From positions 2,709 to 66,708 of the forward strand of contig LBOM01000005.1 of the NCBI GenBank assembly GCA_000989515.1: DNA of 64,000 nt. The letters are read 5' to 3'. Made by a program: the position numbers and the translations under genes. The stretch comes from Candidatus Nomurabacteria bacterium GW2011_GWE1_32_28 (lineage in GTDB: Bacteria; Patescibacteriota; Minisyncoccia; Phycocordibacterales; UBA9973). Below the pieces are notes generated by a model. The model did no database searches. It saw only the letters and a list, made by a program, of their open reading frames with translations, and was not told the origin of the DNA. This document shows, one piece after another, positions 15,444 through 58,902 of the stretch. The stretch's first letter is position 1; each line of letters begins with the position of its first letter.

Positions 15444-17198
15444 ATGAAAGAGAAAATAGAAAATTTAATAAAAAATTCTTTAAAAGAATTTGATATAGAG
15501 ACTAACAATATTTTTTTAGAACATCCTGCAGATATAAAGATGGGAGATTATTCTACGAATGTAGCGATGGTTCTTGCTAAAGAAAATAAAACTAGTCCTA
15601 AAGAATTGGCGGAAAAGATAGCTGGAGAAATAAATAAAATGATCGCTATTTCTCTAGATTTAAGGTTGGATGTTGATAGAGTAGAGGCAAAAAATGGATT
15701 TATTAATTTTTATTTGTCTAAGAATTTTTTGATTGATTCTATTAAAGAAATTTTAGAAAATAAAAATTTTGGGAAAAATAATTATTTTGATGGTAAGAAG
15801 GTAATGATTGAATACACAGATCCAAATCCTTTTAAGCCTTTTCATATTGGACATTTGATGAGTAATGCAATAGGAGAATCTATTTCTCGTATTTTTGAAT
15901 TTTCTGGAGCAAAGGTAGTTCGTGCAAATTATCAAGGAGATGTCGGTCCTCATGTAGCAAAAGCTGTTTATCAAATGTTGGAAAATATAGATGATACAAA
16001 ATCTCTAATGATGGATAATGTTTCTTTGACTGAAAAGATTAATTATATTGGAAGTTCTTATTCAAAAGGAAATGATGTTTATGAAAATAAAGAAGAGTGT
16101 AAAAAAGAAATTGATGAAATAAATAAAAAAATTTACGAAAGAAGTGATAAAAAAATAAATGAGATTTATGATTGGGGAAGAGTTCTTACACTGGAAGCAT
16201 TTGAAGAGATTTATAAAAAATTAGGTACTAATTTTAATTATTATTTTTTTGAAAGTATAGTAGCGCCTATCGGTCTTAAGATAGTACACGAAAATTGTGA
16301 TGAAAATAAGTCTGATAATATTTTTGAGAAGAGTGATGGAGCAATAGTTTTTCATGCAGAAAAATATGATTCAAGGCTTCACACAAGAGTTTTTATTAAT
16401 TCTAAGGGTTTGCCTACATATGAGACTAAGGAGCTGGGGCTTACTCAAATGAAATTTGAAAAAGAAAAATTAGATTTATCTGTTGTAATAACAGCAAATG
16501 AACAAGAAGAATATATGAAAGTTGTCAGTAAGGCATTAGAAATAATAAATCCAGGTATTGTTCATAAGATGAAACATATAGTGCATGGCATGATGCGTCT
16601 TTCTTCTGGAAAGATGTCTTCTCGAAAGGGTAATGTTATAACAGGAGAGTCTCTGATAATAGAATCTTGTGATAAAATTTTAGAAAAAATAAAAGATAGA
16701 GATTTTACAGATGAAGAAAAAAAACAAATAAGTAATGATGTCGGTGTGGCCGCGCTTAAATATTCTATTTTAAGACAAGATATTAGTGGAAATATTATTT
16801 ATGACGCAGATAAATCTATTTCATTTGAAGGAGATTCTGGGCCATATTTACAATATTCATATGCTAGAGCTTTCTCTATTTTAGAAAAAGCTAAAGTAGA
16901 AAATATTTTACCAAGTTTTGTATTTTCAGAGATTGATGTTAATGTTTTTGAAATAGAAAAATTATTATATAGGTTTCCTGAAATAGTATTACGTGGAGCA
17001 CAAGAATTTGAGCCACATTATATTGCAAATTATTTAGTAGATATTGCTCGTGCGTTTAATGCTTTTTATGGGAATAATAAAATTATAGACAAAGATGATT
17101 CAATGTCGTCTTATAAAGTAGCTCTTACATTAGCTTTTTCTTATGTTATTAAAAATGGACTTTATCTATTGGGAATTAAGTCCCCCGAAAGAATGTAG
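15444..17198 (+). CDS. argS: Arginyl-tRNA synthetase
   Basis: PFHIGHLMSN (HIGH), MSSRKG (KMSKS-like) and a DALR-type C-terminus. An alternative ATG at 15420 overlaps the upstream gene. Confidence 0.9.
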   Translation: MKEKIENLIKNSLKEFDIETNNIFLEHPADIKMGDYSTNVAMVLAKENKTSPKELAEKIAGEINKMIAISLDLRLDVDRVEAKNGFINFYLSKNFLIDSIKEILENKNFGKNNYFDGKKVMIEYTDPNPFKPFHIGHLMSNAIGESISRIFEFSGAKVVRANYQGDVGPHVAKAVYQMLENIDDTKSLMMDNVSLTEKINYIGSSYSKGNDVYENKEECKKEIDEINKKIYERSDKKINEIYDWGRVLTLEAFEEIYKKLGTNFNYYFFESIVAPIGLKIVHENCDENKSDNIFEKSDGAIVFHAEKYDSRLHTRVFINSKGLPTYETKELGLTQMKFEKEKLDLSVVITANEQEEYMKVVSKALEIINPGIVHKMKHIVHGMMRLSSGKMSSRKGNVITGESLIIESCDKILEKIKDRDFTDEEKKQISNDVGVAALKYSILRQDISGNIIYDADKSISFEGDSGPYLQYSYARAFSILEKAKVENILPSFVFSEIDVNVFEIEKLLYRFPEIVLRGAQEFEPHYIANYLVDIARAFNAFYGNNKIIDKDDSMSSYKVALTLAFSYVIKNGLYLLGIKSPERM

Positions 17199-17233
17199 GA
17201 AAAAAGTAAATTTTTTGATAATATAGTCTCTAT

Positions 17234-20200
17234 ATGGATAAAGATATAAGTAAATCAGAAGCAGCGCTTCGAGAAGAGGCTGTTTTAGAATTTTGGAAAG
17301 AAAGTAAGATTTTTCAAAAGTCTCTAGAAAAAGAAGCACCAAAAGGTGAATTTATTTTTTATGAAGGTCCACCAACTGCAAATGGTAAACCTGGAATTCA
17401 TCATCTTGAAGCAAGAGCATTTAAAGATGCGATACCTAGATATAAAACAATGCGAGGGTATCATGTTCGCAGAAAAGGCGGATGGGATACACATGGTTTG
17501 CCTGTGGAGCTTCAGGTAGAAAAGAAACTAAATTTAGATTCAAAAATTGCAATTGAAAAATATGGAATTGCAAAGTTTAATCAAGGTTGCAAAGAAAGTG
17601 TTTGGGAATATACAGATCTTTGGAGTAAATTTACAGAACGTATTGGTTATTTTGTTGATCAAGAAAATGCTTATGTAACATATCATAATTCTTATATCGA
17701 GTCTGTCTGGGGTGTTCTTAAAAAAATAGATGAACAAAATTTACTTTATAAAGATTATAAAGTCGTACCTTGGTGTCCAAGATGTGGTACAGTTCTTTCT
17801 TCTCATGAGCTTGCTCAAGGATATGAAGATGTAAAAGATTTATCAGTGACAGTAAAATTTAAAATAAAAGGACAAGAAAATACTTATATTCTCGCTTGGA
17901 CGACGACACCTTGGACATTGCCTGGAAATGTTGCTTTGGCAGTAGGAGAGAAGATTGATTATGTAAAAGTTAGTTTAAATGGAGTTTTTTTAATTTTAGC
18001 AAAAGCACGTTTATCTATAATAGAAGGAGAATTTAAAATAATAGAAGAGATTAAAGGTAAAGACTTAATTGGATTAGAATATGAACCACTCTATCCTTTT
18101 TTAAAAGATACAATTTCTGAGAGCGAAAAACCTAAATTAAATAAAGCTTTTAAGATTTATGGAGCAGATTTTGTGACGACAGAAGATGGTACAGGTGTAG
18201 TACACACTGCTGTCATGTATGGACAAGATGATTTTGTATTGGGTACAGAGATTGGGTTACCAAAACATCATTTAGTTGGTCTTGATGGTGTCTTTTTAAA
18301 GGGTACAGGATTTCTAGAAGGTAGATTTGTTAAAGACGAAGAAGTTGCTATTGATATTATTAAAGATTTGGCGAATCGTTCAACTGATCCACTTTTATTT
18401 AAAAAAGAAAAATATGAGCACTCGTATCCTCATTGTTGGCGTTGTAAAACAGCTCTTATATATTATGCTCGTGACTCTTGGTATATCAAAATGTCTGATA
18501 AAAAAATAAAGGATAAAATGATACAAGAAAATAAAAGTATAAATTGGGAACCATCTCATATTCGTGATGGACGTTTTGGTGAATGGTTAAAAGATATTAA
18601 AGATTGGGCAATTTCTCGTGAACGTTATTGGGGGACACCTCTTCCTGTTTGGGAATGTGTTTCTTGTAAAAAAAGAGAAGTTCTTGGAAGTTTAGACGAA
18701 ATAAAAGAAAGAACAAAAAAATCTGGAAATAAATATTTTGTAATGAGACACGGTCAAGCAGAAAGTAATTTAAAAAATACAATAAGTTCTAAAGTTGAAG
18801 ATGTTGATCATTTAACTGAAAAAGGGAAAAAACAAGTTTTTGATTCTTTGTCTGAGTTAAAAAATAAAAAAATTGATTTTATAATCTCTTCTGATTTTAT
18901 GAGAACAAAAGAAACAGCAGAGATTATAAAAAAAGGACTAGGGATTTCTAATAATAATTTAATTTTTGATAAAAGAATTTGGGAATTATCTGCTGGGATA
19001 TTTGATGGTAATACATGGGATAATTTTTGGGAAGTCCGTGAGAACGGAGAAGGTTATTTTTACAAACCAGAGGGTGGTGAATCACACAAAGATCTCAAGT
19101 TGAGAGTTATTAGTTTTTTATATGATTTAGAAAAAAAATACAAAGATAAGAATATTTTAATCATAACTCATGAAGGACCAGCACGTCTTCTTATTGCTGG
19201 GTTAAAAGGTTTTAATGATATTAATACTATAGAATATTTAAAAGATAATATTGTAAAATTTGATAATGCTGAAATTAAAGAACTAGACTTTGTTTCTATT
19301 CCACATAATGAGAGTTATGAGCTTGATTTACATAGACCATATATTGATGATATAGAAATTGAATGTGAATGTGGTGGAGATCTAATAAGAACAAAAGAAG
19401 TCATGGATGTTTGGTTTGATTCTGGTGCGATGCCTTTTGCTCAAGATCATTATCCGTTTGAAAACAAAGAATGGGTAGATAAAAAAGGTTATCCTGCAGA
19501 TTTTATCTCTGAGGCAATAGATCAGACTCGTGGATGGTTTTATACATTACACGCTGTTGGTGTATTGATGGGACGTGGTAAGGCCTATAAAAACGTTATA
19601 TGTTTAGGTCATTTACTTGATTCAAAGGGTAAAAAGATGTCTAAATCTCTTGGTAACATTGTAGATCCTTGGTCTATGATCGAAAAATATGGAGTAGATA
19701 CATTGCGACTTTGGATGTATTCTGTAAATCAGCCTGGTGAATCAAAGAATTTTGATGAAAAAACCGTTATAGAACTTCATAGACAAGTTTTTGGTTTACT
19801 TTATAATGTTTTAGCTTTTTACGAACTTTATAGAGATATACAACTAGAAACTATTGAGTATAAAAAGTCAGAAAATATTTTAGATAAATGGATTTTAGCT
19901 AGACTTGATGAGTTAATAGATTTTACGACTAAACATCTAGATGATTATAAATTACTTGAACCGACTAGGGCGATAAGAGATTTTATTGGAGATCTTTCTA
20001 CCTGGTATTTGCGTCGCTCAAGAGATAGGATAAAAGATGGAGACAAAGAAGCAAAGCAGACCTTATATTTTGTTTTAAAAAATCTTTCAAAGATAATGGC
20101 ACCATTTACACCTTTTGCCGCTGATGATATATGGTTAAAACTTAAAAATGAAAAAGACATAGAAAGTATTCATTTAGCAGAATGGCCCAAATCATCAAAA

Positions 20201-20716
20201 ACAGTTTTTGATATTTTTAGTAATGGTAAAAATAAAATTTTAGAAGAAATGAAAAAAGTTCGTGAGATTGTTACATTAGGATTTGAAGCTCGACAAAAAG
20301 CAGGTATAAAGGTTCGTCAACCATTAGCGAAGATTCAAATCAAAAATCATACTCTTGATAAAGAGTATGATGAATTAATAAAAGATGAATTAAATATAAA
20401 AGAAATAAAAGAAAATAAAAATATTGAAAGAGGTGTTCTGCTTGATATAGAGATTACAGAAGAATTAAAAGAAGAAGGATGCTATCGTGAATTTGTAAGA
20501 AGCGTGCAGGATATGCGAAAAAATATTGGTCTTACTCCCAGCGATGTTATCTCTCTTTTTATTGAAACGAATGATAAAGGTAAAAAATTAATTCAAAAGT
20601 TTGAGATTGATTTACTTAAAGTAGTTCTAGCCTTAAAAGTAGAATTTAAAGAAAATGAAGGGGAATCTTTAGAGATTGATGAGTTAGTGTTTAAAATTCA
20701 AATAGAAAAAAGATAA
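17234..20716 (+). CDS. ileS: Isoleucyl-tRNA synthetase carrying an internal histidine-phosphatase (PGAM-like) domain insertion
   Basis: PPTANGKPGIHH (HIGH), CP1 editing region TTTPWTLPGN and KMSKSLGN. The insert at about 18722-19315 has RHGQAESN and ITHEGP motifs. Confidence 0.9.
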   Translation: MDKDISKSEAALREEAVLEFWKESKIFQKSLEKEAPKGEFIFYEGPPTANGKPGIHHLEARAFKDAIPRYKTMRGYHVRRKGGWDTHGLPVELQVEKKLNLDSKIAIEKYGIAKFNQGCKESVWEYTDLWSKFTERIGYFVDQENAYVTYHNSYIESVWGVLKKIDEQNLLYKDYKVVPWCPRCGTVLSSHELAQGYEDVKDLSVTVKFKIKGQENTYILAWTTTPWTLPGNVALAVGEKIDYVKVSLNGVFLILAKARLSIIEGEFKIIEEIKGKDLIGLEYEPLYPFLKDTISESEKPKLNKAFKIYGADFVTTEDGTGVVHTAVMYGQDDFVLGTEIGLPKHHLVGLDGVFLKGTGFLEGRFVKDEEVAIDIIKDLANRSTDPLLFKKEKYEHSYPHCWRCKTALIYYARDSWYIKMSDKKIKDKMIQENKSINWEPSHIRDGRFGEWLKDIKDWAISRERYWGTPLPVWECVSCKKREVLGSLDEIKERTKKSGNKYFVMRHGQAESNLKNTISSKVEDVDHLTEKGKKQVFDSLSELKNKKIDFIISSDFMRTKETAEIIKKGLGISNNNLIFDKRIWELSAGIFDGNTWDNFWEVRENGEGYFYKPEGGESHKDLKLRVISFLYDLEKKYKDKNILIITHEGPARLLIAGLKGFNDINTIEYLKDNIVKFDNAEIKELDFVSIPHNESYELDLHRPYIDDIEIECECGGDLIRTKEVMDVWFDSGAMPFAQDHYPFENKEWVDKKGYPADFISEAIDQTRGWFYTLHAVGVLMGRGKAYKNVICLGHLLDSKGKKMSKSLGNIVDPWSMIEKYGVDTLRLWMYSVNQPGESKNFDEKTVIELHRQVFGLLYNVLAFYELYRDIQLETIEYKKSENILDKWILARLDELIDFTTKHLDDYKLLEPTRAIRDFIGDLSTWYLRRSRDRIKDGDKEAKQTLYFVLKNLSKIMAPFTPFAADDIWLKLKNEKDIESIHLAEWPKSSKTVFDIFSNGKNKILEEMKKVREIVTLGFEARQKAGIKVRQPLAKIQIKNHTLDKEYDELIKDELNIKEIKENKNIERGVLLDIEITEELKEEGCYREFVRSVQDMRKNIGLTPSDVISLFIETNDKGKKLIQKFEIDLLKVVLALKVEFKENEGESLEIDELVFKIQIEKR

Positions 20717-20800: not shown

Positions 20801-21277
20801 ATGTCCATTGTATTTGATATTTTAAAGGAATTAAACAATACGACGATTAATTATAAAGGAGGATGTGTTAGTTTGCTTGGGATACCAAAATTTTCTCATT
20901 ATAAATATGGTTCTCTTAAATCTGGGGTTAGTAAATTAAAGAAGAGACAATTAATTATAAAAGATGAATCCGGTTGGTTGTTAACCTCAAAGGGTAAAGA
21001 ATATATTTCCAAGAAACATGATTCTTTGGTTCAATTTGAGTCTCCGTTCAAAAAAAATGATTCTAAAAATTTACTTGTGATGTTTGATATTCCAGAAAAT
21101 AAAAAAGCAGAAAGGGAATGGCTTCGTTGGCATTTAAAGAAATTTAATTATGAAATGATTCAAAAAAGTGTTTGGCGGGGTCCTTCTCCTTTACCTAAAG
21201 AGTTTTTAAATTACATCAAAAAAATAAAAATTTATGATAATTTAAAAATGTTGAAAATATCAAAAATTATTAAATAA
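20801..21277 (+). CDS. PaaX-like protein (winged helix plus Cas2-like central domain). No CRISPR context.
   Basis: LLVMFDIPENKKAEREWLRWHLKKFNYEMIQKSVW matches the Cas2/PaaX-type beta-alpha-beta pattern. The assignment is made by motif only. Confidence 0.5.
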   Translation: MSIVFDILKELNNTTINYKGGCVSLLGIPKFSHYKYGSLKSGVSKLKKRQLIIKDESGWLLTSKGKEYISKKHDSLVQFESPFKKNDSKNLLVMFDIPENKKAEREWLRWHLKKFNYEMIQKSVWRGPSPLPKEFLNYIKKIKIYDNLKMLKISKIIK

Positions 21278-31683: not shown

Positions 31684-32262
31684 TTATACTCTTTCTACAT
31701 ACAATCCAGTTTCAGTATTTACACGTATTATATCTCCCTCTTCTATAAACATAGGAGTAGTTAATGTTGTTCCATTTTCTAATGTAATTATTTTATTTCC
31801 ACCTTGTGCTGTATTTCCTTTTACTGCAGGAGGAGCTTCTTTTACCTTGAATTCCATTTTTATTGGAAGAGTTATTTTAATTATCTTTTCTTCATCGTCG
31901 TCATCCCAGACTAGGGCAGTGACAAGACCATTTTCTTTAAAGAATTTACCAGAATCACCTACAAGAGATGAATTTAATTCAAATCTATTTTTGGGATCTT
32001 CGGGATCACAAAACCAATATTCTCCTTTATTTTGATAAAGAAATTTTATATCTTTTTTTTCTATATCTGCCTCCATCGCAGAGTCAGAAACATGAAAAGT
32101 CGCAGAGATTGTCTTACCAGAAATCAAACTTCTTAATTTTACTTGATTTTGAGGTTTTCTTTGTTGTGTACGTGCTACATGAGAATCTATTACTTCACAA
32201 GGTTCACCACTATAAATGATTATTTTCTTTTCTCTTATTTCGCTATATTGTAATTGTGACAT
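31684..32262 (-). CDS. efp: Elongation factor P
   Basis: The region GEPCEVIDSHVARTQQRKPQNQVKLRSLISGK and a three-domain length. Confidence 0.9.
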   Translation of the reverse strand: MSQLQYSEIREKKIIIYSGEPCEVIDSHVARTQQRKPQNQVKLRSLISGKTISATFHVSDSAMEADIEKKDIKFLYQNKGEYWFCDPEDPKNRFELNSSLVGDSGKFFKENGLVTALVWDDDDEEKIIKITLPIKMEFKVKEAPPAVKGNTAQGGNKIITLENGTTLTTPMFIEEGDIIRVNTETGLYVERV

Positions 32263-32366
32263 ATATTCTTATCTTACAGATTTTTAATAATATTTCTATA
32301 TTGACTTATTTATAATTTGTGATATTGTTTGGCTGGAATATTCTTTAATAAAAAAAGGTGGAAGAA

Positions 32367-33770
32367 ATGAAAAAATTACTTGTTTTGTTTGTTTTGTTAG
32401 CTATTCCTATATCTGCACAGTTTCTTTATAATTTTGGACCTGATAGTCCAAACGTTTTGAAAAAAACAACAGGATTTGGTGGATCTCTTGCATGTGAAAT
32501 CAATATTACATGTGATAATGGTTTCCTTCCTGTTTCAGATGGGGTCTTCTGGTTTAATGGATGTACGGCTTTCTTTTTAGCAAACACATCAGGTGATGGG
32601 CGTTTGTTGTTTATGACAGTCAATCACGTTTTCCCATCGAATGTAGCAATAGGGGGGACGACAACAATAGCTATAAAATTTAATTATCAATCTTCTTCAT
32701 GTTCAAACCCAATAATTGAACCATCTGATGGAGTTTTTTCATTAAATTTAACAGTTAGATTGCTTGTAAGAACTTCTTATGATCAAGTTCTCTGTGAGAT
32801 TGTTGATGATGGGTCTTTGCCTCCAATGAATATTACATTACTTGGTTGGGATACTCGCTATACAAGAACATCGTCTATTGAGATGGCTTTTATGGGTCAC
32901 CCTCAAGCAGATATCAAGAAAATTGCATACCCGACAGTTACGGGGAGTAACTCTTGGAATACTTGGACTAAAGTAATAAAAGGCAATGGTACTGTTGAAG
33001 TAGGATATTCTGGGGCTCCATTGTTGGGAAAAGATGACGATGGGATTCGTGTATATGGATTAGCAAGTGCTGGTTCAGTATATGGATGTAATAGTGATGT
33101 ACAATCATATATTACAGCTAAAAATATAGGAGCTGATTGGAATTTATTAGCTCCTTATTTAGATCCATTAAATTCTAATGCATTGTTTTGTAGTGGGGAA
33201 CCAGCAGCTCTTCCAGTTGAATTGATATTTTTCTCAGCTTTTGTTGATGAAAATTTTGTTGAGTTAAATTGGAAAACAGCAACAGAAGTAAACAATTATG
33301 GATTTGAAGTAGAAAGAAAAACTTTAGATTCTGGTTGGGAGACTATTGGTTTTGTTGAAGGACATGGTAATAGTAATTCGCCCAAAGAATATTTATTTTT
33401 TGATGCAGATGTAACTAATGGTGTCTATTCATATAGATTAAAGCAAATTGATAACAATGGTAAATTTGAATATTCTTCTATCTTAGAAGTAATTATAAAA
33501 ATACCAATTAATTTTGTTTTTTCCCAAAACTATCCAAATCCTTTTAATCCAGAAACTGTAATTAGTTATCAACTTCCCATAGATGATTTTGTAAACTTAA
33601 AAATTTACGATATTGTCGGTAGGGAAGTTTCAGAATTAGTTAACGAAGAAAAAAAAGCTGGGATTTATCAAATTAGATTTGATGGTTCCAATTTGTCTAG
33701 TGGGGTTTATTTTTATAGAATTACCACTGGTGATTTTTCTAAAATTAAAAAAATGATTCTTATAAAATAA
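32367..33770 (+). CDS. Secreted trypsin-like serine peptidase with a T9SS (Por) type-A C-terminal sorting domain
   Basis: Signal peptide MKKLLVLFVLLAIPISAQ, the GYSGAPLL serine-protease-like motif, and LPVELIFFSA...WKTATEVNNYGFEVER...YRLKQIDNNGK. The tail is QNYPNPFNPETVISYQLP...SGVYFYRI. Confidence 0.7.
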   Translation: MKKLLVLFVLLAIPISAQFLYNFGPDSPNVLKKTTGFGGSLACEINITCDNGFLPVSDGVFWFNGCTAFFLANTSGDGRLLFMTVNHVFPSNVAIGGTTTIAIKFNYQSSSCSNPIIEPSDGVFSLNLTVRLLVRTSYDQVLCEIVDDGSLPPMNITLLGWDTRYTRTSSIEMAFMGHPQADIKKIAYPTVTGSNSWNTWTKVIKGNGTVEVGYSGAPLLGKDDDGIRVYGLASAGSVYGCNSDVQSYITAKNIGADWNLLAPYLDPLNSNALFCSGEPAALPVELIFFSAFVDENFVELNWKTATEVNNYGFEVERKTLDSGWETIGFVEGHGNSNSPKEYLFFDADVTNGVYSYRLKQIDNNGKFEYSSILEVIIKIPINFVFSQNYPNPFNPETVISYQLPIDDFVNLKIYDIVGREVSELVNEEKKAGIYQIRFDGSNLSSGVYFYRITTGDFSKIKKMILIK

Positions 33771-33776
33771 TAAAAA

Positions 33777-33796
33777 CCCCCTTCGGAGGAAGGGGG
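33777..33796. terminator. GC-rich hairpin between the convergent 32367 gene and recA
   Basis: CCCCCTTC-GGAG-GAAGGGGG, flanked by A and T runs. Confidence 0.75.
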
Positions 33797-33810
33797 TTTT
33801 CTTATACCTT

Positions 33811-34851
33811 TTAAACTTCTTCTGTAAACTTTTTACGGATTTCTTTTAGTATCTGTTCAGCTATTTTTTTATTTTCCTTCAAGAATGTTCGAGTAGAATC
33901 ATAACCCACACCTAATTTCATCTTTTCTGCACCTGCGACACCCGATGTATAAAAATAAGAGTTACCAGCCTTTTCTACAATTTTAAATTTCTCGCCTAAT
34001 GCTATTATTTCACCTTCTTTAGATATTCCTTCATTGTAAATAATATCAAATTCTGTTTGTTTAAATGGTGCAGCGACTTTATTCTTTACTACTTTTACAC
34101 GAGTACGAGAGCCGACTATGTCTTCTCCTTTTTTAATCTGTGCTATTTTTCTTATATCAAGTCTTACAGAAGTATAGAATTTGAGTGCTTTTCCTCCTGT
34201 GGTTGTCTCAGGATTACCAAACATCACACCTATCTGCATTCTGATTTGATTTATGAATATTACGACAGTCTTACTTCTTGCTACGATGGCTGTGAGTTTA
34301 CGGAGTGCTTGAGACATTAGTCTTGCTTGTTTTCCTACATGATAAGCTCCCATGTCTCCCTCTATTTCATCTTTTGGTGTGAGTGCTGCTACAGAATCTA
34401 TCACTATCACATCGATTTTACCAGTTCGCACAAGACTCTCGACTATTTCAAGTGCTTGTTCTCCAGTGTCTGGTTGAGAGATGAGTAAGTTGTCGATATT
34501 TACTCCGAGTTTTTTAGTATAGTCAGGGTCCATCGCATGTTCAGCATCTATATATGCACATACTCCTCCGAGTTTTTGTGCTTCTGCTACTATATGTAAC
34601 GAGAGGGTAGTCTTTCCAGAAGATTCTGGTCCAAATATCTCAATGATTCTTCCACGAGGTATTCCTCCTACACCGAGTGCCATGTCGAGCCCGATAGATC
34701 CTGTTGGTATTGTGTTTACATCTACCTTTGGGGAGTCTCCTAGTTTCATGATAGATCCTTCTCCAAATTTTGCTTGGATGGCTTTTACTGTATCATTGAG
34801 TAACGATATTCCCATTGTTTTGTCTTCTTTTTTAATTTTTTTCTTTTGCAT
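33811..34851 (-). CDS. recA: Recombinase RecA
   Basis: [16 protein letters not shown] (Walker A), [10 protein letters not shown] and FINQIR. Confidence 0.95.
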
Positions 34852-39854: not shown

Positions 39855-42800
39855 ATGAGTAAATTATTAAAATCAAAATTTTTTCTTGGAGTAGCAGTGT
39901 TCGCACTTGCATTCGTTGTCACAGCTTCAGCTATGGCAGCAGATGGTGTTATCACAAAAACTCTTAAGAAGGGAATGAAAGATGTTCAAGTTCAATATCT
40001 TCAACAGACTCTTAACGAAAAAGGTTTTACAGTATCATCAACAGGTGCTGGTTCAGCTGGTTCTGAAACAACATACTTTGGTCCTGCTACTGTAAATGCA
40101 GTAAAAGCTTTTCAAGCTGCTAAGAGTTTAGTAGCTGATGGTATATTTGGTGCAAAGTCACGTGCAGCTTTAGATAGTTCATCTACAGTTGGTGATCTTT
40201 GTCCAAATGGCATGACAATGGCAAGTAACTGTACTACTCTACCAAGTAGTACAACAGAAACTCTTTGTCCAAATGGCATGACATTAGCAAGTAACTGTTC
40301 AGTTGCTCCAGCTGGAAATTCAACTTCAACTGGTCCTATCGCAGTTTCTCTTGCTTATACAAATCCAGCTCCTGGAACATTAGTTACAGGTCAAGCAACA
40401 GCTGACCTTGCACACTTTAATTTCACAGGAACAGGAACAGTCACAGCTCTTACATTACAAAGAATCGGAGTTTCCGCTGACACAACACCTTCAAATATCT
40501 ATCTTTTTGATGGAGCAACACGTCTTACAGACGCAGCTTCTGTCACAAATACTGGTTTAGTTACTTTTGCAAACCCAGCTGGTTTGTTTGTAGGTGGCAA
40601 GACCATTTCTGTAAAGTCAGATATCTTGACAAATACATCAGGTCAAACTCTTGGAATGAAATTAGTATCTTACACAGTAGATGGAGTAGCTACAGCTGCT
40701 AACATTTCAGGAAATATACACAATATTGCTTCTGCAACATTGGCTGCAGTTTCTGCAGGTACAGTTACACCATCAGGTGCAACTATCAACCCAGCTGCTG
40801 CTGTAACACTATGGCAATCAACATTAACAGTCTCACAAAGAGATGTGTTGATGAAAAGATTAGCTCTACGTCAAGTAGGTTCAGCTCCAGCTTCAGCTTT
40901 CCAAAACTTTAAGCTCTATGTAAATGGAGTACAAGTAGGAACAGCTACAGGTCTTGATATCAACGGATATGTCACATTTGATTTAACTTCTGCTCCAGCT
41001 ACATTAGTAGCAGGATCAAGAGTTGTTAGAGTAGATGCAGATGTTGTATCTGGTGCTTCACGCACAGTTCAACTTTCTCTACGTCAAGCAGCAGATGTTG
41101 ATTTCGTAGATTCAAGCTTCGGTGTAAACATTACCCCAACTTCAACTCCATGGACAGGATCAGCAAGTACAATTTCTGGTACTTCAGGTGGATCATTGAC
41201 AGTTGAAAAGGATGTTACATCTCCTTCAACAAACTTAACTTTGTCTGGAACTGATGTAAATCTTGGAACATTCAAATTAACAGCTTATGGTGAATCAATC
41301 AAGGTTGAAACACTTACAGCTGGATTTACCTATACAGATACTTCAGCTGGTGGTAACACAGCTACATTGAGAAACGGACGTCTTTTGATTAACGGTGTTC
41401 AATATGGCTCTACAGCTACAATATTAGCTGCTGGAACTTCATTTACAACAAACTACACAGTAGTTCCTGGTACACCAGTACTAGTAGAAGTACATGCAGA
41501 TGTTTATGACAATGATGGTACTCTAGCAATCGAAGCTGCAGATACAATTGTTGCAACACTTAAGACAGGTTCTTCAAATGCTACACGTGTAGATTCAATG
41601 GGTTCGTTCAATGTTCCTAGTGCAGATGTCTCAGGAAATACATTGACAGTAGCTACAACATCTATCACATTATCAAAGAATGGAACATATGCTAACCAAA
41701 CAACAGTTCTTCCAGCAACTAATTTCAAAATTGGTTCATGGAATTTGACTGGTAGTTCAGTAGAAGATGTTCTTTTGACAACATTGTCATTTGATGCTGA
41801 TGAGGTAGTTGGTACAGAATTTGACGAAGGTGATATGACAAATATGTATGTAGTAGTAAAGAGTGGTTCAACAACAGTTGCTCAACCTTCACCACTAGGT
41901 ACAGTGTCAGCAGCCGACAACAATTTCTCAATCAATTACACTCTTCCTAAAAATGGAAGTGTAACAATTGAATTGTTTGCTAATCTTTCTGATGATGGTC
42001 TTGATTCTGCTATTGATGCAGCTGATTCATTCAAAACAGATCTTACTATAACAGGTACTTCTCTTGTTTCTGGTCAATCTGTCACAGCTACTTCAGCTGA
42101 TACAGATGGTCAAACAATTGCTTATGGTTCAGCTTCAATCACTGTCACAAAAGATGCTTCAACACCAGTTGCAGCTATCGTTTATGACAACCAAGAAGTA
42201 ACAACAGCAGCATTGAAATTTGCAGCTGTCACTTCAGGTTACAACGTAACAGATCTTACATTTACAGTTGATTCTACAACAGTAGCTAATACAGTCAATC
42301 TTTATGATGGTTCTACTTTGTTAGCATCACAAGCAGGTGGAGTATCTCCATTGACTTTCTCAGGATTGGCATGGAACATTCCAGCTAATACAAATAAAGT
42401 CCTTACTGTTAAATTAGTATTAGGTGAAGTTTCTGATTCAGGTGCTGGTAGTACAAACGGTGCTGCATTGTTAACAACATTGACATCCTTTACTGCAACT
42501 TCAACATCAACAGGTGTTTCAGCAGCGGGTACTATCACAAGTGGAGCAGGAAATGTAGCATACGTTTATGCAGCAGTTCCTTCTCTTGAAAATGTATCTT
42601 TGTCTTCTACTAATGTTACTGCAGGTACAAATGTATTTGCTAAATACAAAGTTACTTCAAATGGAGGTCCTACAGCATGGGAAAAAACAATCTTTACTAT
42701 TGCTCGTGCAACAACAGGTGCAGCAGTTGCAAATACCTTTACTCTTTGGGATGAAAACAATACCCAAGTAGCAGGTACAGCAACTCTAACCGATGCAGGT

Positions 42801-43145
42801 ACAGCAGATAACGATTGTGCTGATGCTCTTGATACTTCATGTACAGTTACATTTGTTGCAACTACAGAACAGCAAGTAAGTACTTCAAAGACATACTCAT
42901 TAAAGGGTTCAGTCTCTGGTACACTTACTGATGGAGATTACTTCTCTACTTCTATAGCTCAACCTTCAAGTTTTGTAGCAGCTGATGATTACACAGCAGT
43001 TGCTGCAACAGCAGCTACATTTGTATGGTCAGATATGACTGGTATTGGTCATGACATTACAAGTGAGACTGTTCTTGATTGGAACAATGGATATCTTGTA
43101 AAAATTCTTCCTCTTGATGCACAAACTTTGACTAGATCACTCTAG
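39855..43145 (+). CDS. Major cell-surface (S-layer-like) protein with an N-terminal peptidoglycan-binding domain
   Basis: Signal/anchor MSKLLKSKFFLGVAVFALAFVVTASAMA and a PG_binding_1-like segment (VQYLQQTLNEKGF...FGPATVNAVKAFQ). About 950 aa are Thr/Ser/Ala/Gly/Val-rich and beta-rich. The codon choice is distinct and visibly biased. Confidence 0.65.
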   Translation: MSKLLKSKFFLGVAVFALAFVVTASAMAADGVITKTLKKGMKDVQVQYLQQTLNEKGFTVSSTGAGSAGSETTYFGPATVNAVKAFQAAKSLVADGIFGAKSRAALDSSSTVGDLCPNGMTMASNCTTLPSSTTETLCPNGMTLASNCSVAPAGNSTSTGPIAVSLAYTNPAPGTLVTGQATADLAHFNFTGTGTVTALTLQRIGVSADTTPSNIYLFDGATRLTDAASVTNTGLVTFANPAGLFVGGKTISVKSDILTNTSGQTLGMKLVSYTVDGVATAANISGNIHNIASATLAAVSAGTVTPSGATINPAAAVTLWQSTLTVSQRDVLMKRLALRQVGSAPASAFQNFKLYVNGVQVGTATGLDINGYVTFDLTSAPATLVAGSRVVRVDADVVSGASRTVQLSLRQAADVDFVDSSFGVNITPTSTPWTGSASTISGTSGGSLTVEKDVTSPSTNLTLSGTDVNLGTFKLTAYGESIKVETLTAGFTYTDTSAGGNTATLRNGRLLINGVQYGSTATILAAGTSFTTNYTVVPGTPVLVEVHADVYDNDGTLAIEAADTIVATLKTGSSNATRVDSMGSFNVPSADVSGNTLTVATTSITLSKNGTYANQTTVLPATNFKIGSWNLTGSSVEDVLLTTLSFDADEVVGTEFDEGDMTNMYVVVKSGSTTVAQPSPLGTVSAADNNFSINYTLPKNGSVTIELFANLSDDGLDSAIDAADSFKTDLTITGTSLVSGQSVTATSADTDGQTIAYGSASITVTKDASTPVAAIVYDNQEVTTAALKFAAVTSGYNVTDLTFTVDSTTVANTVNLYDGSTLLASQAGGVSPLTFSGLAWNIPANTNKVLTVKLVLGEVSDSGAGSTNGAALLTTLTSFTATSTSTGVSAAGTITSGAGNVAYVYAAVPSLENVSLSSTNVTAGTNVFAKYKVTSNGGPTAWEKTIFTIARATTGAAVANTFTLWDENNTQVAGTATLTDAGTADNDCADALDTSCTVTFVATTEQQVSTSKTYSLKGSVSGTLTDGDYFSTSIAQPSSFVAADDYTAVAATAATFVWSDMTGIGHDITSETVLDWNNGYLVKILPLDAQTLTRSL

Positions 43146-45962: not shown

Positions 45963-46622
45963 ATGAGAAAAAATCCTCTTGTAACTAATCAGTATTATCA
46001 TATTTATAATAGAGGAGTCGATAAAAGAGATATTTTTATGAATAAATCTGATTTAGATAGATTTATTTTGAGTGTAAAGGAATTTAATATAGTTAAACCT
46101 ATAGGTAGTATTAAAGAGCGATTAATAGAATTAAAAGCCCCGTCGGGTGTTGGACACCCGACGGGGCTTGTTTCTATTGTCTGTTATTGTTTTAATCCAA
46201 ATCATTTTCATTTTATTTTAAAACAAGAAGTAGATGGTGGAATTTCAGAATTTTTTAAGCGTTTACTTGGTGGATATACAAATTATTTTAATTTAATACA
46301 CAAGAGAAATGGGGCATTATTTCAAGGAAGATTTAAGTCTAATTTGGTTGACGATGAAGAATATTTTTTAAAAATTCGTCCTTATGTGCATTTAAATTAT
46401 TTAGTACATGATATTCCAAAAGAAAAAAAGTATTTAATATCATCAAGCAAGAAAGAATATGATACTAATAAATTTACTATTGTTTCAAAAAAAGAAGCAA
46501 AAGAACTTTTGGATTTTTATAATGGTAATCTAAATTATAAAAAAGAATGCTTAGATGTAATTTCTTTTATTCGAGAAGAAAGAGGATTAACTTCTTTGTT
46601 TGAAGAAGAATTATTACCATAA
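45963..46622 (+). CDS. REP-associated tyrosine transposase (RAYT; IS200/IS605 TnpA-like HUH Y1 enzyme)
   Basis: YYHIYNRGVDKRDIF, the HUH motif NPNHFHFIL, ALFQGRFKS and the Tyr motif RPYVHLNYL. REP palindromes flank it. Confidence 0.8.
   Translation: MRKNPLVTNQYYHIYNRGVDKRDIFMNKSDLDRFILSVKEFNIVKPIGSIKERLIELKAPSGVGHPTGLVSIVCYCFNPNHFHFILKQEVDGGISEFFKRLLGGYTNYFNLIHKRNGALFQGRFKSNLVDDEEYFLKIRPYVHLNYLVHDIPKEKKYLISSSKKEYDTNKFTIVSKKEAKELLDFYNGNLNYKKECLDVISFIREERGLTSLFEEELLP
46137..46167. repeat. REP-like palindrome, copy 4, inside the RAYT coding sequence
   Basis: GCCCCGTCGGGTGT-TGG-ACACCCGACGGGGC (14-bp stem). It is translated in frame as APSGVGHPTGL. Confidence 0.85.
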
Positions 46623-48030: not shown

Positions 48031-51000
48031 GGTGATAGAATTGTTTCTGATATTAAATCATTGCTAAATAATTTAAAAGAAAATGATGAACAGGAAATAG
48101 GGGAGCCTTGTATTTCTCCACCAGAACTTTCTTTACTTCATAAAGTTCAGGGTGTTTTGTTTGCTGTAGCTGACCCGACTGCAGGAGTAGTGAAAGTCGG
48201 ATTAATTAGTTCTTATAATGCAGGTTCTTATATCGCTGATGGTGTGCATAATGCTGGATTAGCAGTAGGAAACGGGATACATGATACTAGCTTAAAAATA
48301 AATAATATGGTTTCAGGATTGTTGGCAAATGCTATTGGAAGTTTGCCTGATGCTGGTGTTATAGCTGCTGTTCCTTTTGGTGTATTAGATTCTGAAAATA
48401 TAGAAGCTGGGGCGGAGGAATTGCCTCCGCCTGCTTCGTCTGTAGAGAAAGAGACCGTCCTTCCACAAGAGATACCTGAGATAAAAGATGAAGTAACTAT
48501 TCCTACTGAACCTGAACCTATTTTAGTTGAGCCAGTTCCTGAAAAAGAAGAAGTTGTGGATGTTGTACCAGAGAAGATTGATCCTATCGTATCTAATACC
48601 ACATATTATGGTGGAGGTGGCGGAAGTAGTACACCTACAGATATAGTTGCTCCAGTTATTACAATTCTTGGAAATAATCCTGAGACAATTACAAAAGATT
48701 CTATTTATCTTGATGCAGGTGCGACAGCTTTGGACGATGTTGATGGTGTGATAGAAGTAGTTGTCACTGGTGTTGTGGATATTAGTGTCGTTGGTGTTTA
48801 TATTATTACTTATACTGCGACAGATCTTTCTAATAATATTGCGACAATGATACGTACTATCAACGTTGTTTTGCCTCCACCCCCACCACTTGCTACTTTT
48901 ACAATTGACTCTGATACTACATTAGTTGCTGGTGAATATAATTATGATAATTTAATTATTACAAATAATGCGGTACTTACCTTAGATAGCAATCGTGATT
49001 CACTAGACCCATTTAAGGGTGTAAAAATAAATGCAGTAAATATAACTATTGAAAATGGTTCATCTATTTCTGCTCAAAGTAAAGGATACGCGAATGGTCC
49101 AGGAACTTATGCAGAGAATAGTCCTGGTGCGAGTTATGGTGGAACAGGTGATAAAAATATTTCAACATCGATATATGGTAGTGCGACCAAGCCTATTGAT
49201 TTAGGTAGTGGGGGATATAATTATTTTCGTGATGGTGGAGCTATTCGTCTTGTCGTCACAGATACTCTCATAAATAATGGTATTGTTTCTTCGAATGGAG
49301 ATAGTACATCGAGTGGTGGAAGTATTTATGTAACAACAAAAAATTTGACTGGAAGTGGTTCATTTAGTGCAAATGGTGGAGGATTATACTCTACTTCCGT
49401 TATTCACGGTTCTGGTAGTGGAGGTAGAATTGCTATATATTATGAAGTTAATTCTTTTTCTGGAATAGTAGAAGCAAAAGGTGGATGTGGAAGTTATGAT
49501 GGATATTCTAGAACTTGTGCGATGGATGGAACAGTTGGATATTTTGATACAATAAATAATGATCTTTCTGTATATAATTCATGGCAATTTTTAAAAGTAG
49601 ATAGTCCATTTAATTATAATAAAATTATTTTAACAAATGGTTCGACAATAAGATCAGAAAAAGAAGTTAATATAACAGCAGACGATCTTCTTTTAGATAA
49701 GATTTCTAATTTTACATTAAACGAAGATCAGATTATAAATATTTCGTCAATTAGGTTAAATGAAAATTCTAGATTAACACTTTCTGGAAGTGAAATGATA
49801 ACTGCTGACAATTTAATTATTAGTGGCAATTCTGATGTCACTATAGTTATAGAGAAAATATTTTCTTTAACTATTCCGAACATTAATATTGAAAGTGGAT
49901 CTTCTATTTCAGCTGATACAAAAGGGTATTTTGGTGGTCCGGGTGCTCCTTTGGTATACAGGGCTGGTGCAAGCTATGGAGGAGCAGGCGAGGGAAGCGA
50001 TGATGCATTAACTTATGGTTCAGTTTTGGAACCTGTAGATTTTGGAAGTGGTGGAAATGGTGATCTACGTGGTGGTGGAGCTATTCGTCTTGTCGTCACA
50101 GATACTTTCATAAACAATGGTATTGTTTCTTCAAATGGAAACAGCACATCGAGTGGTGGAAGTATATATATAACAGTAAAGAATTTATCTGGAAGTGGAA
50201 AATTTAGTGCAAACGGAGGAGGGCTTTATTCTTCTTCTGTTATATTTGGTTCTGGTGGAGGTGGTAGAAATGCAATTTATTATGAGAGTAATCTTTTTAC
50301 TGGAACAGTGGAAGCAAAAGGTGGATGTGGAAGTTATGATGGATATTCTAGAGTCTGTGCAAAAGATGGAACAGTAAAAATGATTGATACTACAAAGAGT
50401 TCAGTAAAACAAATTACGACATTTGATTTTATGAGTTTGACACCAAACGTTGTTGGAATGATTGATGAAGTTAATCATGCTGTTTCTCTAACTGTTCCTT
50501 TTGGTACTGCTGTGACAGCTCTCGTCTCAACTATTACAATTTCAGAAAAAGCGATAATTAGTCCAGATACTAATGTAGCTCAAGATTTTACAAATGCTGT
50601 TACTTACACAGTGACTGCAGAGAATGGTTCTACTCAGGATTATATTGTCACAGTTTTGGTCGCTTCTGATCCAAATCCTCTACCTGATGATACGATACCT
50701 TCAATATTAAGCTCTTCATTAAATGGAATTGCTAGTGATGTGGCGACCAATCCTGTCGTAGACCTTGTTTCTATTGCTTTTATTGCAAATGAAAATGTAG
50801 ATTGGGTTTCTATAAAAATTGAGAAAGAAGACGATGAAACTGTTTACAAATATTTTTATCCAGGGATTGATTGTGATGGGCAGGATGCTTGTACTAAATC
50901 ATGGAATGGTTTATTAGCGGGAGATTCAATAGCACCAATCGGTGTATATAAGATAAGGGTTCGTATTCGAGATCTGATTAGCCTAGAAGAATATGATTTT

Positions 51001-51039
51001 TCCCATTTATATAAAATTACAGTAGATACTTCTCTATAA
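48031..51039 (+). CDS. Large beta-helix / Ig-like surface protein, possibly the continuation of 47392-48030 across the in-frame TAG
   Basis: It has no signal peptide of its own and no in-frame ATG near its start. A DUF5011-like Ig domain is present (APVITILGNNPETITKDSIYLDAGATALDDVDG...). Two long Gly/Ser-rich beta-helix repeats are nearly identical. Confidence 0.55.
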   Translation, partial: GDRIVSDIKSLLNNLKENDEQEIGEPCISPPELSLLHKVQGVLFAVADPTAGVVKVGLISSYNAGSYIADGVHNAGLAVGNGIHDTSLKINNMVSGLLANAIGSLPDAGVIAAVPFGVLDSENIEAGAEELPPPASSVEKETVLPQEIPEIKDEVTIPTEPEPILVEPVPEKEEVVDVVPEKIDPIVSNTTYYGGGGGSSTPTDIVAPVITILGNNPETITKDSIYLDAGATALDDVDGVIEVVVTGVVDISVVGVYIITYTATDLSNNIATMIRTINVVLPPPPPLATFTIDSDTTLVAGEYNYDNLIITNNAVLTLDSNRDSLDPFKGVKINAVNITIENGSSISAQSKGYANGPGTYAENSPGASYGGTGDKNISTSIYGSATKPIDLGSGGYNYFRDGGAIRLVVTDTLINNGIVSSNGDSTSSGGSIYVTTKNLTGSGSFSANGGGLYSTSVIHGSGSGGRIAIYYEVNSFSGIVEAKGGCGSYDGYSRTCAMDGTVGYFDTINNDLSVYNSWQFLKVDSPFNYNKIILTNGSTIRSEKEVNITADDLLLDKISNFTLNEDQIINISSIRLNENSRLTLSGSEMITADNLIISGNSDVTIVIEKIFSLTIPNINIESGSSISADTKGYFGGPGAPLVYRAGASYGGAGEGSDDALTYGSVLEPVDFGSGGNGDLRGGGAIRLVVTDTFINNGIVSSNGNSTSSGGSIYITVKNLSGSGKFSANGGGLYSSSVIFGSGGGGRNAIYYESNLFTGTVEAKGGCGSYDGYSRVCAKDGTVKMIDTTKSSVKQITTFDFMSLTPNVVGMIDEVNHAVSLTVPFGTAVTALVSTITISEKAIISPDTNVAQDFTNAVTYTVTAENGSTQDYIVTVLVASDPNPLPDDTIPSILSSSLNGIASDVATNPVVDLVSIAFIANENVDWVSIKIEKEDDETVYKYFYPGIDCDGQDACTKSWNGLLAGDSIAPIGVYKIRVRIRDLISLEEYDFSHLYKITVDTSL

Positions 51040-54181: not shown

Positions 54182-55082
54182 TAAATACTTTATAGAAATA
54201 GAAAAAAGATGTCCACACTTTCCCCATTGGGGCTTAGGTTGACATCTTTTTTCGTTTAATATATACTCTTTCAATCAGTATGATTACATTAAGAAACAAG
54301 TTTAAAAGGCGGTTTTAAGCAGACTTTCTTTTGTCTGTTGACCGCTTAAAAAGCGGTTTTTTATTTGGTAAGTATGGCTTGAAAATTGACAACTTAAATC
54401 CTATCCTAGTATTCTTGGACAACTTGCAAAAGTGTGTCCGGCATGCAGCCTGTATGCTTAGGGTCTTTTCAAAGCTAGAGATAGGAAATTGTTTAAATAA
54501 TTTTGAATGCCGAGCGGTCGGACTAGATTTTATTATAAGCATTGTTTTATCCTTATGTAATGTAAGGATTGTGATTTATAAATTTCTTAACAGGAAATTT
54601 AAGGGCGTATGGTGGATGCCTTGACTTTAAGAGGCGATGAAGGACGTGGCGTTGCTGCGATAAGCTTCGGGGAGGTGCTTAGCTACCTTTGATCCGGAGA
54701 TTTCCGAATGGGGAAACCCTATCAAGTAAACCTTGATAACTTTTATCTTTATGATAAAAGAGCATACCCTGGGAAGTGAAACATCTCAGTACCAGGAGGA
54801 ATAGAGACAAATATGTATTTCCTTAGTAGCGGCGAGCGAAAAGGAAGAAGCCCAAACCGTTCTCGCAAGAGGGCGGGGTTGTAAGATGACAATGTAGTTT
54901 ACTAGGAGAGTTAAAAAATAAATTATTAGTTGAAGTTGCTGGAAAGCGACACCGTAGGGGGTGATAGTCCCGTAAACGAAAATAATTTATCTCTTTTATT
55001 GTTATTCTTGAGTACCCCAGGACATGAATGGCCGGGGGGAATCTAGCGGAACTAACCGCTAAGGCTAAATACTCTTAAAGAT

Positions 55083-55119
<37 letters not shown>

Positions 55120-56332
55120 CAGCCCGATTAGGGCGGTGAAATAGACCTGAAACCATATGTCTACAAGGAGTCGGAGCAGGTATTTATATCTGCAACGGCG
55201 TGCCTATTGAAGAATGAGCCAACGAGTTTATTCATACTGCAAGGCTAAGCTGGCTAAAACAGCAGAGCCGAAGGGAAACCGAGTGTTAATAGCGCGAATG
55301 AGTAGTATGCATAAGACCCGAAGCCAGGTGAGCTTGCCATGAGCAGGTTGAAGTTTGTCGAAAGACAAATGGAGGACCGAACCGGTAGATCGTACAACGT
55401 CTTCGGATGACTTGTGGTAAGGAGTGAAAAGCTAATCGAACCTGGTAATAGCTGGTTCTCTCCGAAATAGCTTTAGGGCTAGCGTCACTGGAAGGTTTCG
55501 ACAGGGAGCAATCTCGCGAAACCTATCAAACTCCGAATACCAGAAACCATAGCTTGGCAGTTAGGCCATGGGGGCGAAGCTCCATTGGCCAAAAGGGAAA
55601 CAGCCCAGATCTCAAAATAAGGTCCCTAAATTTATGCTAAGTGTAAGATAAGAAGGTGGAATTTCTCTGACAATGAGGAGGTTGGCTTAGAAGCAGCCAT
55701 CCTTTAAAGATAGCGTAACAGCTCACTCATCTAGAGATTTTGCGTCGACATAGTACCGAATTTGAGGATTTCGTTTTTCTTCGGAAGAACGGAGTGGTAG
55801 GAGAGTGTTCCAATCTGCTGTGAAGTAGGACTCGTGAGAGCCTATGGAGCGTTTGGAAGTAAGAATGTTGGCACAAGTAACCGCAATGAGGGTGAGATCC
55901 CCTCACGTCGAAAGATCAAGGTTTCCTTGGTAATGTCAATCAGCCAAGGGTTAGTCGGGCCTAAGGGAATGGAGAAATCCGTACTCGATGGACATAGGGT
56001 TAATATTCCCTGACTTCTGTATTTTGTGATGGGACGACGGAGTGTAGTATGTATTGCTCATTATTGGATTTGAAGTTTGTTTACTAAAGATGAGGTGTAG
56101 GAAAATCCGCACACTGCTTTCAATGGCAAATCTAAGGTAAATGAAAAGTCTTAAGCCTCGGTTTAGGACAATAATACAAAGCACGCTTCCAAGAAAAATC
56201 TCTAAACTTAAAAATATAGAATCCGTACCGCAAACCGACACAGGTGATCAGGTCGAGTAGACCAAGACGAACGAGTGAGTGGTCCCCAAGGAACTCGGCA
56301 AAAAAGCAGCCGTAACTTCGGGATAAGGCTTG

Positions 56333-56486
56333 CCCCCACCACTTTGGATATTTCTAAATATTTGAGAGTGTTGGGAGAGTAAGATTTAAGTATCGAGCAA
56401 AAAGAGACAATGAGGAATTAAATTAAAGCTCTTCATCATTTTTTATTTCACAGAATTTTTTTGTGAAGTATCTAAAGTGGTGGGGG
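56333..56486 (+). other. AT-rich expansion / intervening-sequence-like insertion in the helix-63 region of the 23S
   Basis: A closing stem CCCCCACCACTTT / AAAGTGGTGGGGG encloses about 128 nt of AT-rich sequence, where E. coli has a much shorter helix. Confidence 0.6.
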
Positions 56487-56640
56487 CCGCAGCGAAAGTT
56501 TCTCTGGCAACTGTTTACCAAAAACACAGCTCCCTGCGAACTCGTAAGAGGATGTATAGGGGGTGACACCTGACCAATGCCAGAAGGTCAAATATCGGCG
56601 GTGTATGTCGCAAGATGTATGCAGACTGATATAAGCCCTG

Positions 56641-56683
<43 letters not shown>

Positions 56684-58793: not shown

Positions 58794-58902
<109 letters not shown>

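Follow-up and report, generated by a model that had tools for sequence, protein, structure and literature searches.

We analyzed a stretch of 64,000 nucleotides (the window) from contig LBOM01000005.1 (positions 2,709–66,708; assembly GCA_000989515.1) of Candidatus Nomurabacteria bacterium GW2011_GWE1_32_28, which belongs to the Candidate Phyla Radiation (CPR). A complete coding sequence on the plus strand at 32367–33770 (stop codon at 33768–33770) encodes a protein of 467 residues, NCBI UR25_C0005G0035. The enzyme is a predicted extracellular, lysyl-endopeptidase-like S1 protease with an intact catalytic triad, which carries at its C-terminus a fibronectin type III (FnIII)-like domain and a type IX secretion system (T9SS) sorting tail. 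Proteins combining an S1 protease with a T9SS tail are known as such; the surprise is the CPR host, together with relatives from Komeilibacteria and from a Pacearchaeota-like contig. We consider it probable that the gene is a horizontally acquired protease gene of the type found in the Fibrobacterota-Chlorobiota-Bacteroidota (FCB) group, that its product is exported by the general secretory (Sec) pathway only and that the tail is not used for sorting.

The catalytic domain comprises residues ~36–278 (32472–33200) and was assigned from profile matches, the catalytic triad and structure prediction. The N-terminal 280 residues alone gave just a weak Trypsin_2 match in Pfam, and a single-sequence search with this domain returned only the query because of a word-index limit; relatives came from an alignment-based profile search. 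A profile of seven full-length homologues matched the lysyl endopeptidase structure 1arb with E = 3.8e-23 across the entire mature enzyme (profile positions 49–284 versus chain residues 2–262) and the structure 4nsy with E = 1e-21. This agrees with the initial annotation of the stretch, which was made without database searches and had guessed an S1 protease. According to the alignment, the triad consists of His87 (32625–32627), Asp139 (32781–32783) and Ser215 (33009–33011). All three are invariant among the seven closest homologues; among 23 wider relatives Asp139 is invariant and His87 and Ser215 are kept in at least 90%. Four cysteines (Cys43, Cys49, Cys112 and Cys241) are conserved, as expected of a secreted enzyme. 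In Lys-C the preference for lysine is set by Asp225. The region aligned to this residue (GCNSDVQSY) is variable among the homologues and Asp225 is not clearly conserved.

A first AlphaFold2 (AF2) model based on seven sequences was poor in the protease domain, with a predicted local distance difference test (pLDDT) value of 58; an alignment of 23 sequences raised this value to 88.4. In the second model, two β-sandwiches come after a domain with the chymotrypsin fold. A Foldseek search with the model resulted in matches to chymotrypsin, enteropeptidase and urokinase-type plasminogen activator at a template modeling (TM) score of ~0.6.

The first β-sandwich (residues 282–377; 33210–33497) is FnIII- or immunoglobulin (Ig)-like and extends over LPVEL...NWKTATEVNNYGFEVER...YRLKQIDNNGKFEYS. 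It was delimited by AF2, Foldseek and a hidden Markov model (HMM) of the C-terminal cassette described below. The region LPVEL...NWKTATEVNNYGFEVER...YRLKQID matches no Pfam family. In the AF2 model it is all-β with pLDDT values of 83–95, and Foldseek matches it to tandem FnIII domains. Fold searches of the C-terminal half yielded generic FnIII/Ig matches and pointed to no specific function for this middle domain.

The second β-sandwich is a type A T9SS C-terminal sorting domain (residues 389–467; 33531–33767), which exceeds the cutoffs of both available models: PF18962 (E = 1.2e-11, 45.2 bits, cutoff 27, residues 389–464 of 467) and TIGR04183 (46.3 bits, cutoff 23). All motifs of the tail are present (NYPNPFNP, VxLKIYDxxGREV, SGVYFYRI and KKMILIK), and the signature QNYPNPFNP...SGVYFYRITTG...KKMILIK is located at the extreme C-terminus. 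Residues 396–465 are predicted as all-β with pLDDT values of 90–97 (AF2), and Foldseek relates them to Ig/FnIII sandwiches and to PorU of Porphyromonas gingivalis. The type A tail proposed in the initial annotation is thus confirmed by the TIGR04183 match. Of the two signatures quoted there, the second is indeed the sorting tail, whereas the first belongs to the separate FnIII-like domain and lies outside the tail model.

Taken as one unit, the FnIII-like domain and the tail form a cassette of 186 residues. Thousands of proteins that are not otherwise related share it at their C-termini with 55–63% identity; those few that are named are proteins of Ignavibacteriales, Ignavibacteriaceae or Bacteroidetes metagenome-assembled genomes (MAGs). 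The cassette HMM was built from 118 sequences among the top 120 database matches, including the query. With this HMM no second tail-bearing open reading frame (ORF) was found in the window. The cassette, or the tail alone, also occurs on 52 predicted viral loci from IMG/VR (L174–L225; here and below, L and P numbers denote individual loci and related proteins), with at most ~60% identity on the best segment. The protease domain is present on none of these 52 loci, which are uninformative on the route of transfer.

At the N-terminus, residues 1–17 (MKKLLVLFVLLAIPISA; 32367–32417) are a predicted Sec-type signal peptide, as the initial annotation had suggested; n-, h- and c-regions are recognizable by inspection. 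The predicted cleavage site ISA↓Q, assigned by eye and not by a predictor, places Gln18 at position +1. A glutamine at +1 after the signal peptide is described as the Q-rule of Bacteroidetes in PMC10653852. A corresponding cut before glutamine (A↓Q or G↓Q) is seen in 10 out of 12 family N-termini listed, in the tailed proteins of two related loci discussed below (L096 and L105) and in 62 out of 88 cassette proteins with a crude signal peptide. It is absent from both native secreted proteins of the window that were inspected (n = 2).

The gene is located between efp (31684–32262, minus strand; Pfam EFP_N, EFP and Elong-fact-P_C) and recA (33811–34851, minus strand; Pfam RecA, 456 bits). With RecA as a probe we fetched 80 metagenomic loci whose RecA is 73–94% identical to that of the window (L094–L173). 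About 55 of them span the recA–efp junction and keep the order ftsK, a gene for a 122-residue protein, recA, efp, S18, SSB and S6; the protease domain was found in none of the 80. The gap between recA and efp varies from a few base pairs to ~5 kb among these relatives (in the window the interval is 32263–33810), and efp is inverted in several loci (e.g. L094, L095, L099 and L109). Since the junction-spanning relatives keep the gene order without the protease, the gene is best described as an insertion into a variable hot spot, of which efp and recA form the left and right edges, as judged also from synteny. The lone insert noticed in the initial annotation therefore stands: in relatives, recA and efp either adjoin each other or have other variable DNA between them. 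The ORFs adjoining the gene include no recognized integrase or transposase, as far as this can be said without a formal mobile-element scan or a search for flanking repeats.

The closest relative, L096 (RecA 94% identical), carries a different Por_Secre_tail protein at the same spot and in the same convergent orientation. We considered this gene as a positional orthologue and rejected it: its passenger domain and cassette are nearest to P0094 and P0098 (Bacteroidetes MAG), with the window cassette ranking 32nd. Because passenger and cassette are both nearest to other proteins, the tailed gene of L096 is taken as an independent insertion. A second case is L105, a Nomurabacteria-like contig, in which a protein of 268 residues encoded between efp and S18 (2084–2887) has a Por_Secre_tail match of 50 bits and begins with a signal peptide that follows the Q-rule. 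From these two independent genes it follows that uptake of T9SS-tailed genes at the hot spot is recurrent in this CPR clade. The hot spot of L096 (8072–11346) encodes three secreted proteins altogether: the Por_Secre_tail protein, which has a Q-rule signal peptide, a protein with a C-terminal transmembrane anchor and a protein of 384 residues ending in a dockerin type I domain.

A profile of the N-terminal domain found 7040 relatives among 1.84 billion representative proteins, mostly long forms with a propeptide of ~190 residues. When one genome per GTDB species was considered, the top 80 matches consisted of 78 from Bacteroidota (26–31% identity), one from a Komeilibacteria MAG (40%) and one from Neomarinimicrobiota. 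In neighbor-joining (NJ) trees the short-form clade that includes the window protein was monophyletic in 100% of the bootstraps relative to four long-form outgroups. Within this clade the window protein grouped with P0002, an archaeal copy, with P0003/P0004 and with P0126 (90% NJ bootstrap). P0003 and P0004 (L006 and L227) are the only close pair (85% identical) and have no lineage placement; P0007 is found on L009. The contigs of P0121 and P0122 carry further Por_Secre_tail genes, that of P0122 also a CarboxypepD_reg TonB-dependent receptor, and both look like parts of genuine FCB-type diderms. P0126 (L090) adjoins mlaE on a diderm-like contig. Three paralogs, P0006, P0124 and P0129, are encoded on three contigs of the Komeilibacteria MAG GCA_024654345.1 (L005/L010, L092 and L093), and a further Komeilibacteria MAG encodes PIZ99394.1, to which P0005 is identical.

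The closest full-length homologue is P0002 with 47% identity. Its gene is located at 10001–11464 of L003, a contig of 47 kb with a uniform GC content of ~32%, which encodes archaeal RpoD, uS11, uS4, uS13, L21e and RpoN at 15529–19352. The closest named sequences to this RpoD are from Pacearchaeota and Nanoarchaeota. A second assembly (L004) confirms the local gene order around P0002, not the link to the archaeal markers. If the L003 contig is sound, a T9SS-tailed protease is encoded by an archaeon of the DPANN group (Diapherotrites, Parvarchaeota, Aenigmarchaeota, Nanoarchaeota, as well as Nanohaloarchaeota). L003 has one small ORF in common with L006 (39% identity).

Judged from these sequence relationships, the design of the protein is ultimately that of a T9SS-bearing FCB-type lineage, and horizontal acquisition is supported. 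The latter was one of three options named in the initial annotation and agrees with the relatives that are without the gene at the junction and with a family rooted in Bacteroidota-type diderms. A different CPR or DPANN genome of low GC content may have served as the last donor: the short-form subfamily also occurs in Komeilibacteria and on the Pacearchaeota-like contig, and the gene has a host-identical composition, yet is absent from near relatives. Amelioration of the gene after transfer, as considered in the initial annotation, is not required if the donor itself had a low GC content.

Based on these results we propose the following course of events. The whole gene was probably taken up as one unit into the variable recA–efp spot. 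In this host, for which a single membrane and no T9SS are presumed, the enzyme would leave the cell by means of its signal peptide alone. In T9SS cargo the tail serves for crossing of the outer membrane through SprA, cleavage by PorU and anchoring to anionic lipopolysaccharide (A-LPS). Here Sec export would already place the enzyme outside, and this job would be without a substrate. The C-terminal domain would persist as a folded β-sandwich extension, either tolerated or given another use, and the enzyme could break down proteins of the environment or of the host surface, to the benefit of a symbiont reliant on amino acids from outside.

Several observations weigh against this proposal. With the cassette HMM, the window cassette reaches 295 bits, on par with genuine FCB cargo, and the alignment with FCB cargo reveals no decay of the tail, with every motif kept in all CPR and DPANN copies. 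The suggestion of the initial annotation that the tail might have lost its function is not borne out; the tail is fully intact. For P0003 versus P0004, the ratios of nonsynonymous to synonymous substitution rates (dN/dS) amount to 0.26 (protease), 0.30 (FnIII-like domain) and 0.27 (tail); in this pair, purifying selection on the tail equals that on the enzyme. The recurrence of T9SS-tailed genes in CPR exceeds what one chance transfer would lead us to expect and hints at some use of the cassette. The immediate donor is unsampled, as the nearest sampled homologue is just 47% identical. Finally, the signal peptide is a prediction by eye, and the look-over for T9SS and outer-membrane genes covers just 64 kb of the genome.

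Some of these observations would be explained if CPR and DPANN cells kept the cassette for a role of its own that is independent of a T9SS, a possibility that we regard as unlikely. Options for such a role are docking to the attachment complex PorV/PorU exposed on the surface of a T9SS-bearing FCB host or a more general function as adhesion, anchoring or latency domain; in that case, FCB bacteria would be indicated as hosts by the repeated acquisition of their cargo genes. The intact tail in each CPR and DPANN copy speaks for this explanation, as do the tail dN/dS in P0003/P0004, which is close to that of the protease domain, the three paralogs in one Komeilibacteria MAG and the independent tailed genes at or near the hot spot in the Nomurabacteria-like loci L096 and L105. 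On the other hand, P0003 and P0004 could be from an FCB bacterium, and the cassette is extremely conserved everywhere, so that recent or repeated transfer may account for its intactness. Absence from all sampled close relatives also marks the gene as dispensable. Both the host and the binding are themselves part of the proposal, and the T9SS is understood to recognize the tail from the periplasmic side. A more specific form of the idea is correspondingly more doubtful: CPR and DPANN lineages would repeatedly keep FCB cargo cassettes because the tail acts as a host-targeting or surface-docking module via PorV/PorU or the glycolipid layer. If this were true, the protease of a symbiont would be placed on the envelope of a Bacteroidota or Ignavibacteriota host, and FCB bacteria would be the hosts of these Nomurabacteria.

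We also considered that the gene is ancient in Parcubacteria, was inherited vertically in the vicinity of recA and ftsK and was lost in most lineages. This is very unlikely. One of the Komeilibacteria paralogs, P0129 on L092, is indeed encoded ~3.5 kb from the trio of recA, a gene for a Glucodextran_B protein and ftsK, and this trio is also found beside the window gene; the RecA of L092 is 63% identical to that of the window. However, the ~55 closer relatives that span the junction have no such gene there, and in the tree P0129 falls apart from the window protein, which is found instead with the archaeal and diderm-like copies at the 90% bootstrap mentioned above. Furthermore, the diversity of the family is overwhelmingly in Bacteroidota, and polyphyly of the CPR copies among FCB sequences is already suggested by the current tree.

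NCBI lists the identical protein under Candidatus Nomurabacteria bacterium GW2011_GWE1_32_28 (Patescibacteria group, Parcubacteria group), in accordance with the CPR-like genome recognized in the initial annotation. The window contains type IV pilus genes without a secretin and many ORFans. The 23S rRNA gene (54589–57407) and the 5S rRNA gene (58796–58901) are separated by a spacer of ~1.4 kb with a LAGLIDADG homing-endonuclease ORF inside (57868–58359); there is no 16S rRNA gene upstream of the 23S rRNA gene and no tRNA gene anywhere in the 64 kb. A pilus without secretin, a 23S rRNA gene without an upstream 16S rRNA gene, a LAGLIDADG ORF in the spacer and many ORFans are typical of CPR genomes. 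We inspected the window translations by eye and compared about two dozen ORFs, either unknown or large, with Pfam. No T9SS component was recognized in this way in the window or its ±10-kb flanks, a survey that did not include a dedicated search with T9SS models. Patescibacteria have been proposed to be without an outer membrane (PMC12102498), and a systematic genome survey detected the T9SS in Bacteroidetes only (PMC4793230).

It is highly improbable that the host is not a typical one-membrane CPR bacterium, or encodes a T9SS elsewhere in its genome, and that the protease is simply ordinary T9SS cargo. In favor of this view, our examination extended over 64 kb and not over the whole genome. 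The CPR hallmarks of the window and the NCBI assignment to Nomurabacteria argue against it, as do the lack of a recognized T9SS component by eye and Pfam in the window and the restriction of reported systems to Bacteroidetes/FCB in the survey cited. In addition, the cassette/tail HMM had just two matches, those in L096 and L105, in 712 kb of related loci.

The initial annotation had left room for a wrong taxonomic guess or a chimeric contig. The identical protein is found with the same neighbors on at least 24 contigs, 23 of which are at least 50 kb long; they include a 410-kb contig of an assembly in the European Nucleotide Archive and the separately deposited NCBI assembly GCA_003511065.1. 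The protease gene has a GC content of 0.324 and a GC content at third codon positions (GC3) of 0.182, compared with window means of 0.308 and 0.180. Its codon-usage distance is typical among the other 49 window genes, so that the host-like codon usage noted initially holds. The tetranucleotide distance of the gene corresponds to the 64th percentile of the window segments, and the composition continues across the gene without a break. Given the NCBI identity, the at least 24 contigs and the indistinguishable composition, both chimerism or contamination and mistaken taxonomy are rejected; the latter is also contradicted by the RecA relatives (73–94% identical) with their common gene order. An assembly or binning artefact, in which a fragment of an FCB genome was joined to a CPR contig, would account for a gene type foreign to the host clade, but is next to inconceivable in view of these contigs, the matching GC, GC3, codon usage and tetranucleotides, the tight intergenic spacers and the terminator shared with recA.

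The initial annotation had placed the ORF at 32367–33770 (+) between efp and recA, and both signatures quoted there are present in the translation. A Shine-Dalgarno sequence (AGGTGG, 32356–32361, plus strand; from reading of the sequence) is located 5 nucleotides ahead of the ATG at 32367. Further upstream, a consensus scan found a promoter-like site (TTGACT, 16 nucleotides, TG-TATTGT; 32301–32328, plus strand), which is a weak candidate as such sites are rarer here than in shuffled sequence. The hairpin at 33772–33801, rich in GC and with T-runs on either strand, is a bidirectional terminator; the gene thus has the terminator expected from the initial annotation, but has it in common with the convergent recA.

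Some other features of the window, all on the plus strand, are worth recording. The isoleucyl-tRNA synthetase (17234–20716) has a complete histidine-phosphatase domain (His_Phos_1; residues 502–661, 94 bits) inside its class I catalytic domain, which is an unusual fusion. Two putative surface proteins of very large size are encoded at 39855–43145 (1096 residues, rich in Ala, Thr, Ser and Gly, with an N-terminal PG_binding_1 domain; GC 0.39, GC3 0.15) and at 48061–51039 (992 residues, with two long internal repeats identified by eye, Bact_surface_Ig-like and DUF5018). A small PaaX_M/Cas2-like protein is encoded at 20801–21277, and no array of clustered regularly interspaced short palindromic repeats (CRISPR) was noticed nearby. 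An IS200-like (Y1_Tnp) protein at 45963–46622 had a borderline score. A radical-SAM protein (61302–62603) overlaps the end of a class II aminoacyl-tRNA-synthetase-like gene (59986–61305).

Our literature searches yielded no account of such tails in CPR, Patescibacteria or DPANN; the automatic annotation of NCBI already labels a Komeilibacteria homologue as T9SS type A sorting domain-containing protein. A match to TIGR04183 alone is evidence neither for a T9SS nor for contamination of a bin. The apparently repeated flow of genes from FCB-type bacteria to ultra-small symbionts of both domains, with a hot spot beside recA, may inform on which organisms live together. An intact tail in a cell where the machine is presumably absent provides a natural test for functions beyond sorting, and a secreted protease is a plausible tool for an amino-acid-dependent episymbiont.

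Compared with type A T9SS cargo from Bacteroidota and Ignavibacteriota, e.g. the gingipains of P. gingivalis, the window protein has the same C-terminal β-sandwich sorting domain, likewise a Sec signal peptide at the N-terminus followed by Gln at +1, and a cassette that is 55–63% identical. It differs in its CPR host, which is presumed to have neither outer membrane nor T9SS, and in being the single such gene in 64 kb instead of one of a large cargo repertoire. Within the short-form clade, P0121 and P0126 agree with the window protein in their three-domain architecture and cassette, and their protease domains are 34–41% identical to its own; P0122 reaches its C-terminus after just the first ~49 cassette positions. 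P0121 and P0122 with their Por_Secre_tail neighbors and P0126 with MlaE represent organisms in which the tail is expected to be in use.

The long-form lysyl-endopeptidase-like proteases of Bacteroidota (L011–L089) belong to the same catalytic family (26–31% identity), and some of them have a T9SS tail. They differ by an N-terminal pro-region of ~150–250 residues, are mostly without the FnIII-like half of the cassette and serve as outgroup for the short-form proteins (100% bootstrap). Finally, Achromobacter protease I (lysyl endopeptidase, Lys-C; 1arb and 4nsy; family S1) is homologous to the window protein over the whole mature enzyme. Both share the His/Asp/Ser triad in the motifs HV, DxxLxE and GxSGxP, an N-terminal CxIxxxC motif and the chymotrypsin-like fold. 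In contrast to the Lys-C precursors, the window protein has no long propeptide: its catalytic domain starts near residues 36–40, ~20 residues past the signal peptide, whereas that of most relatives begins near residue 190. It also differs by its C-terminal extension, composed of the FnIII-like domain and the T9SS tail.

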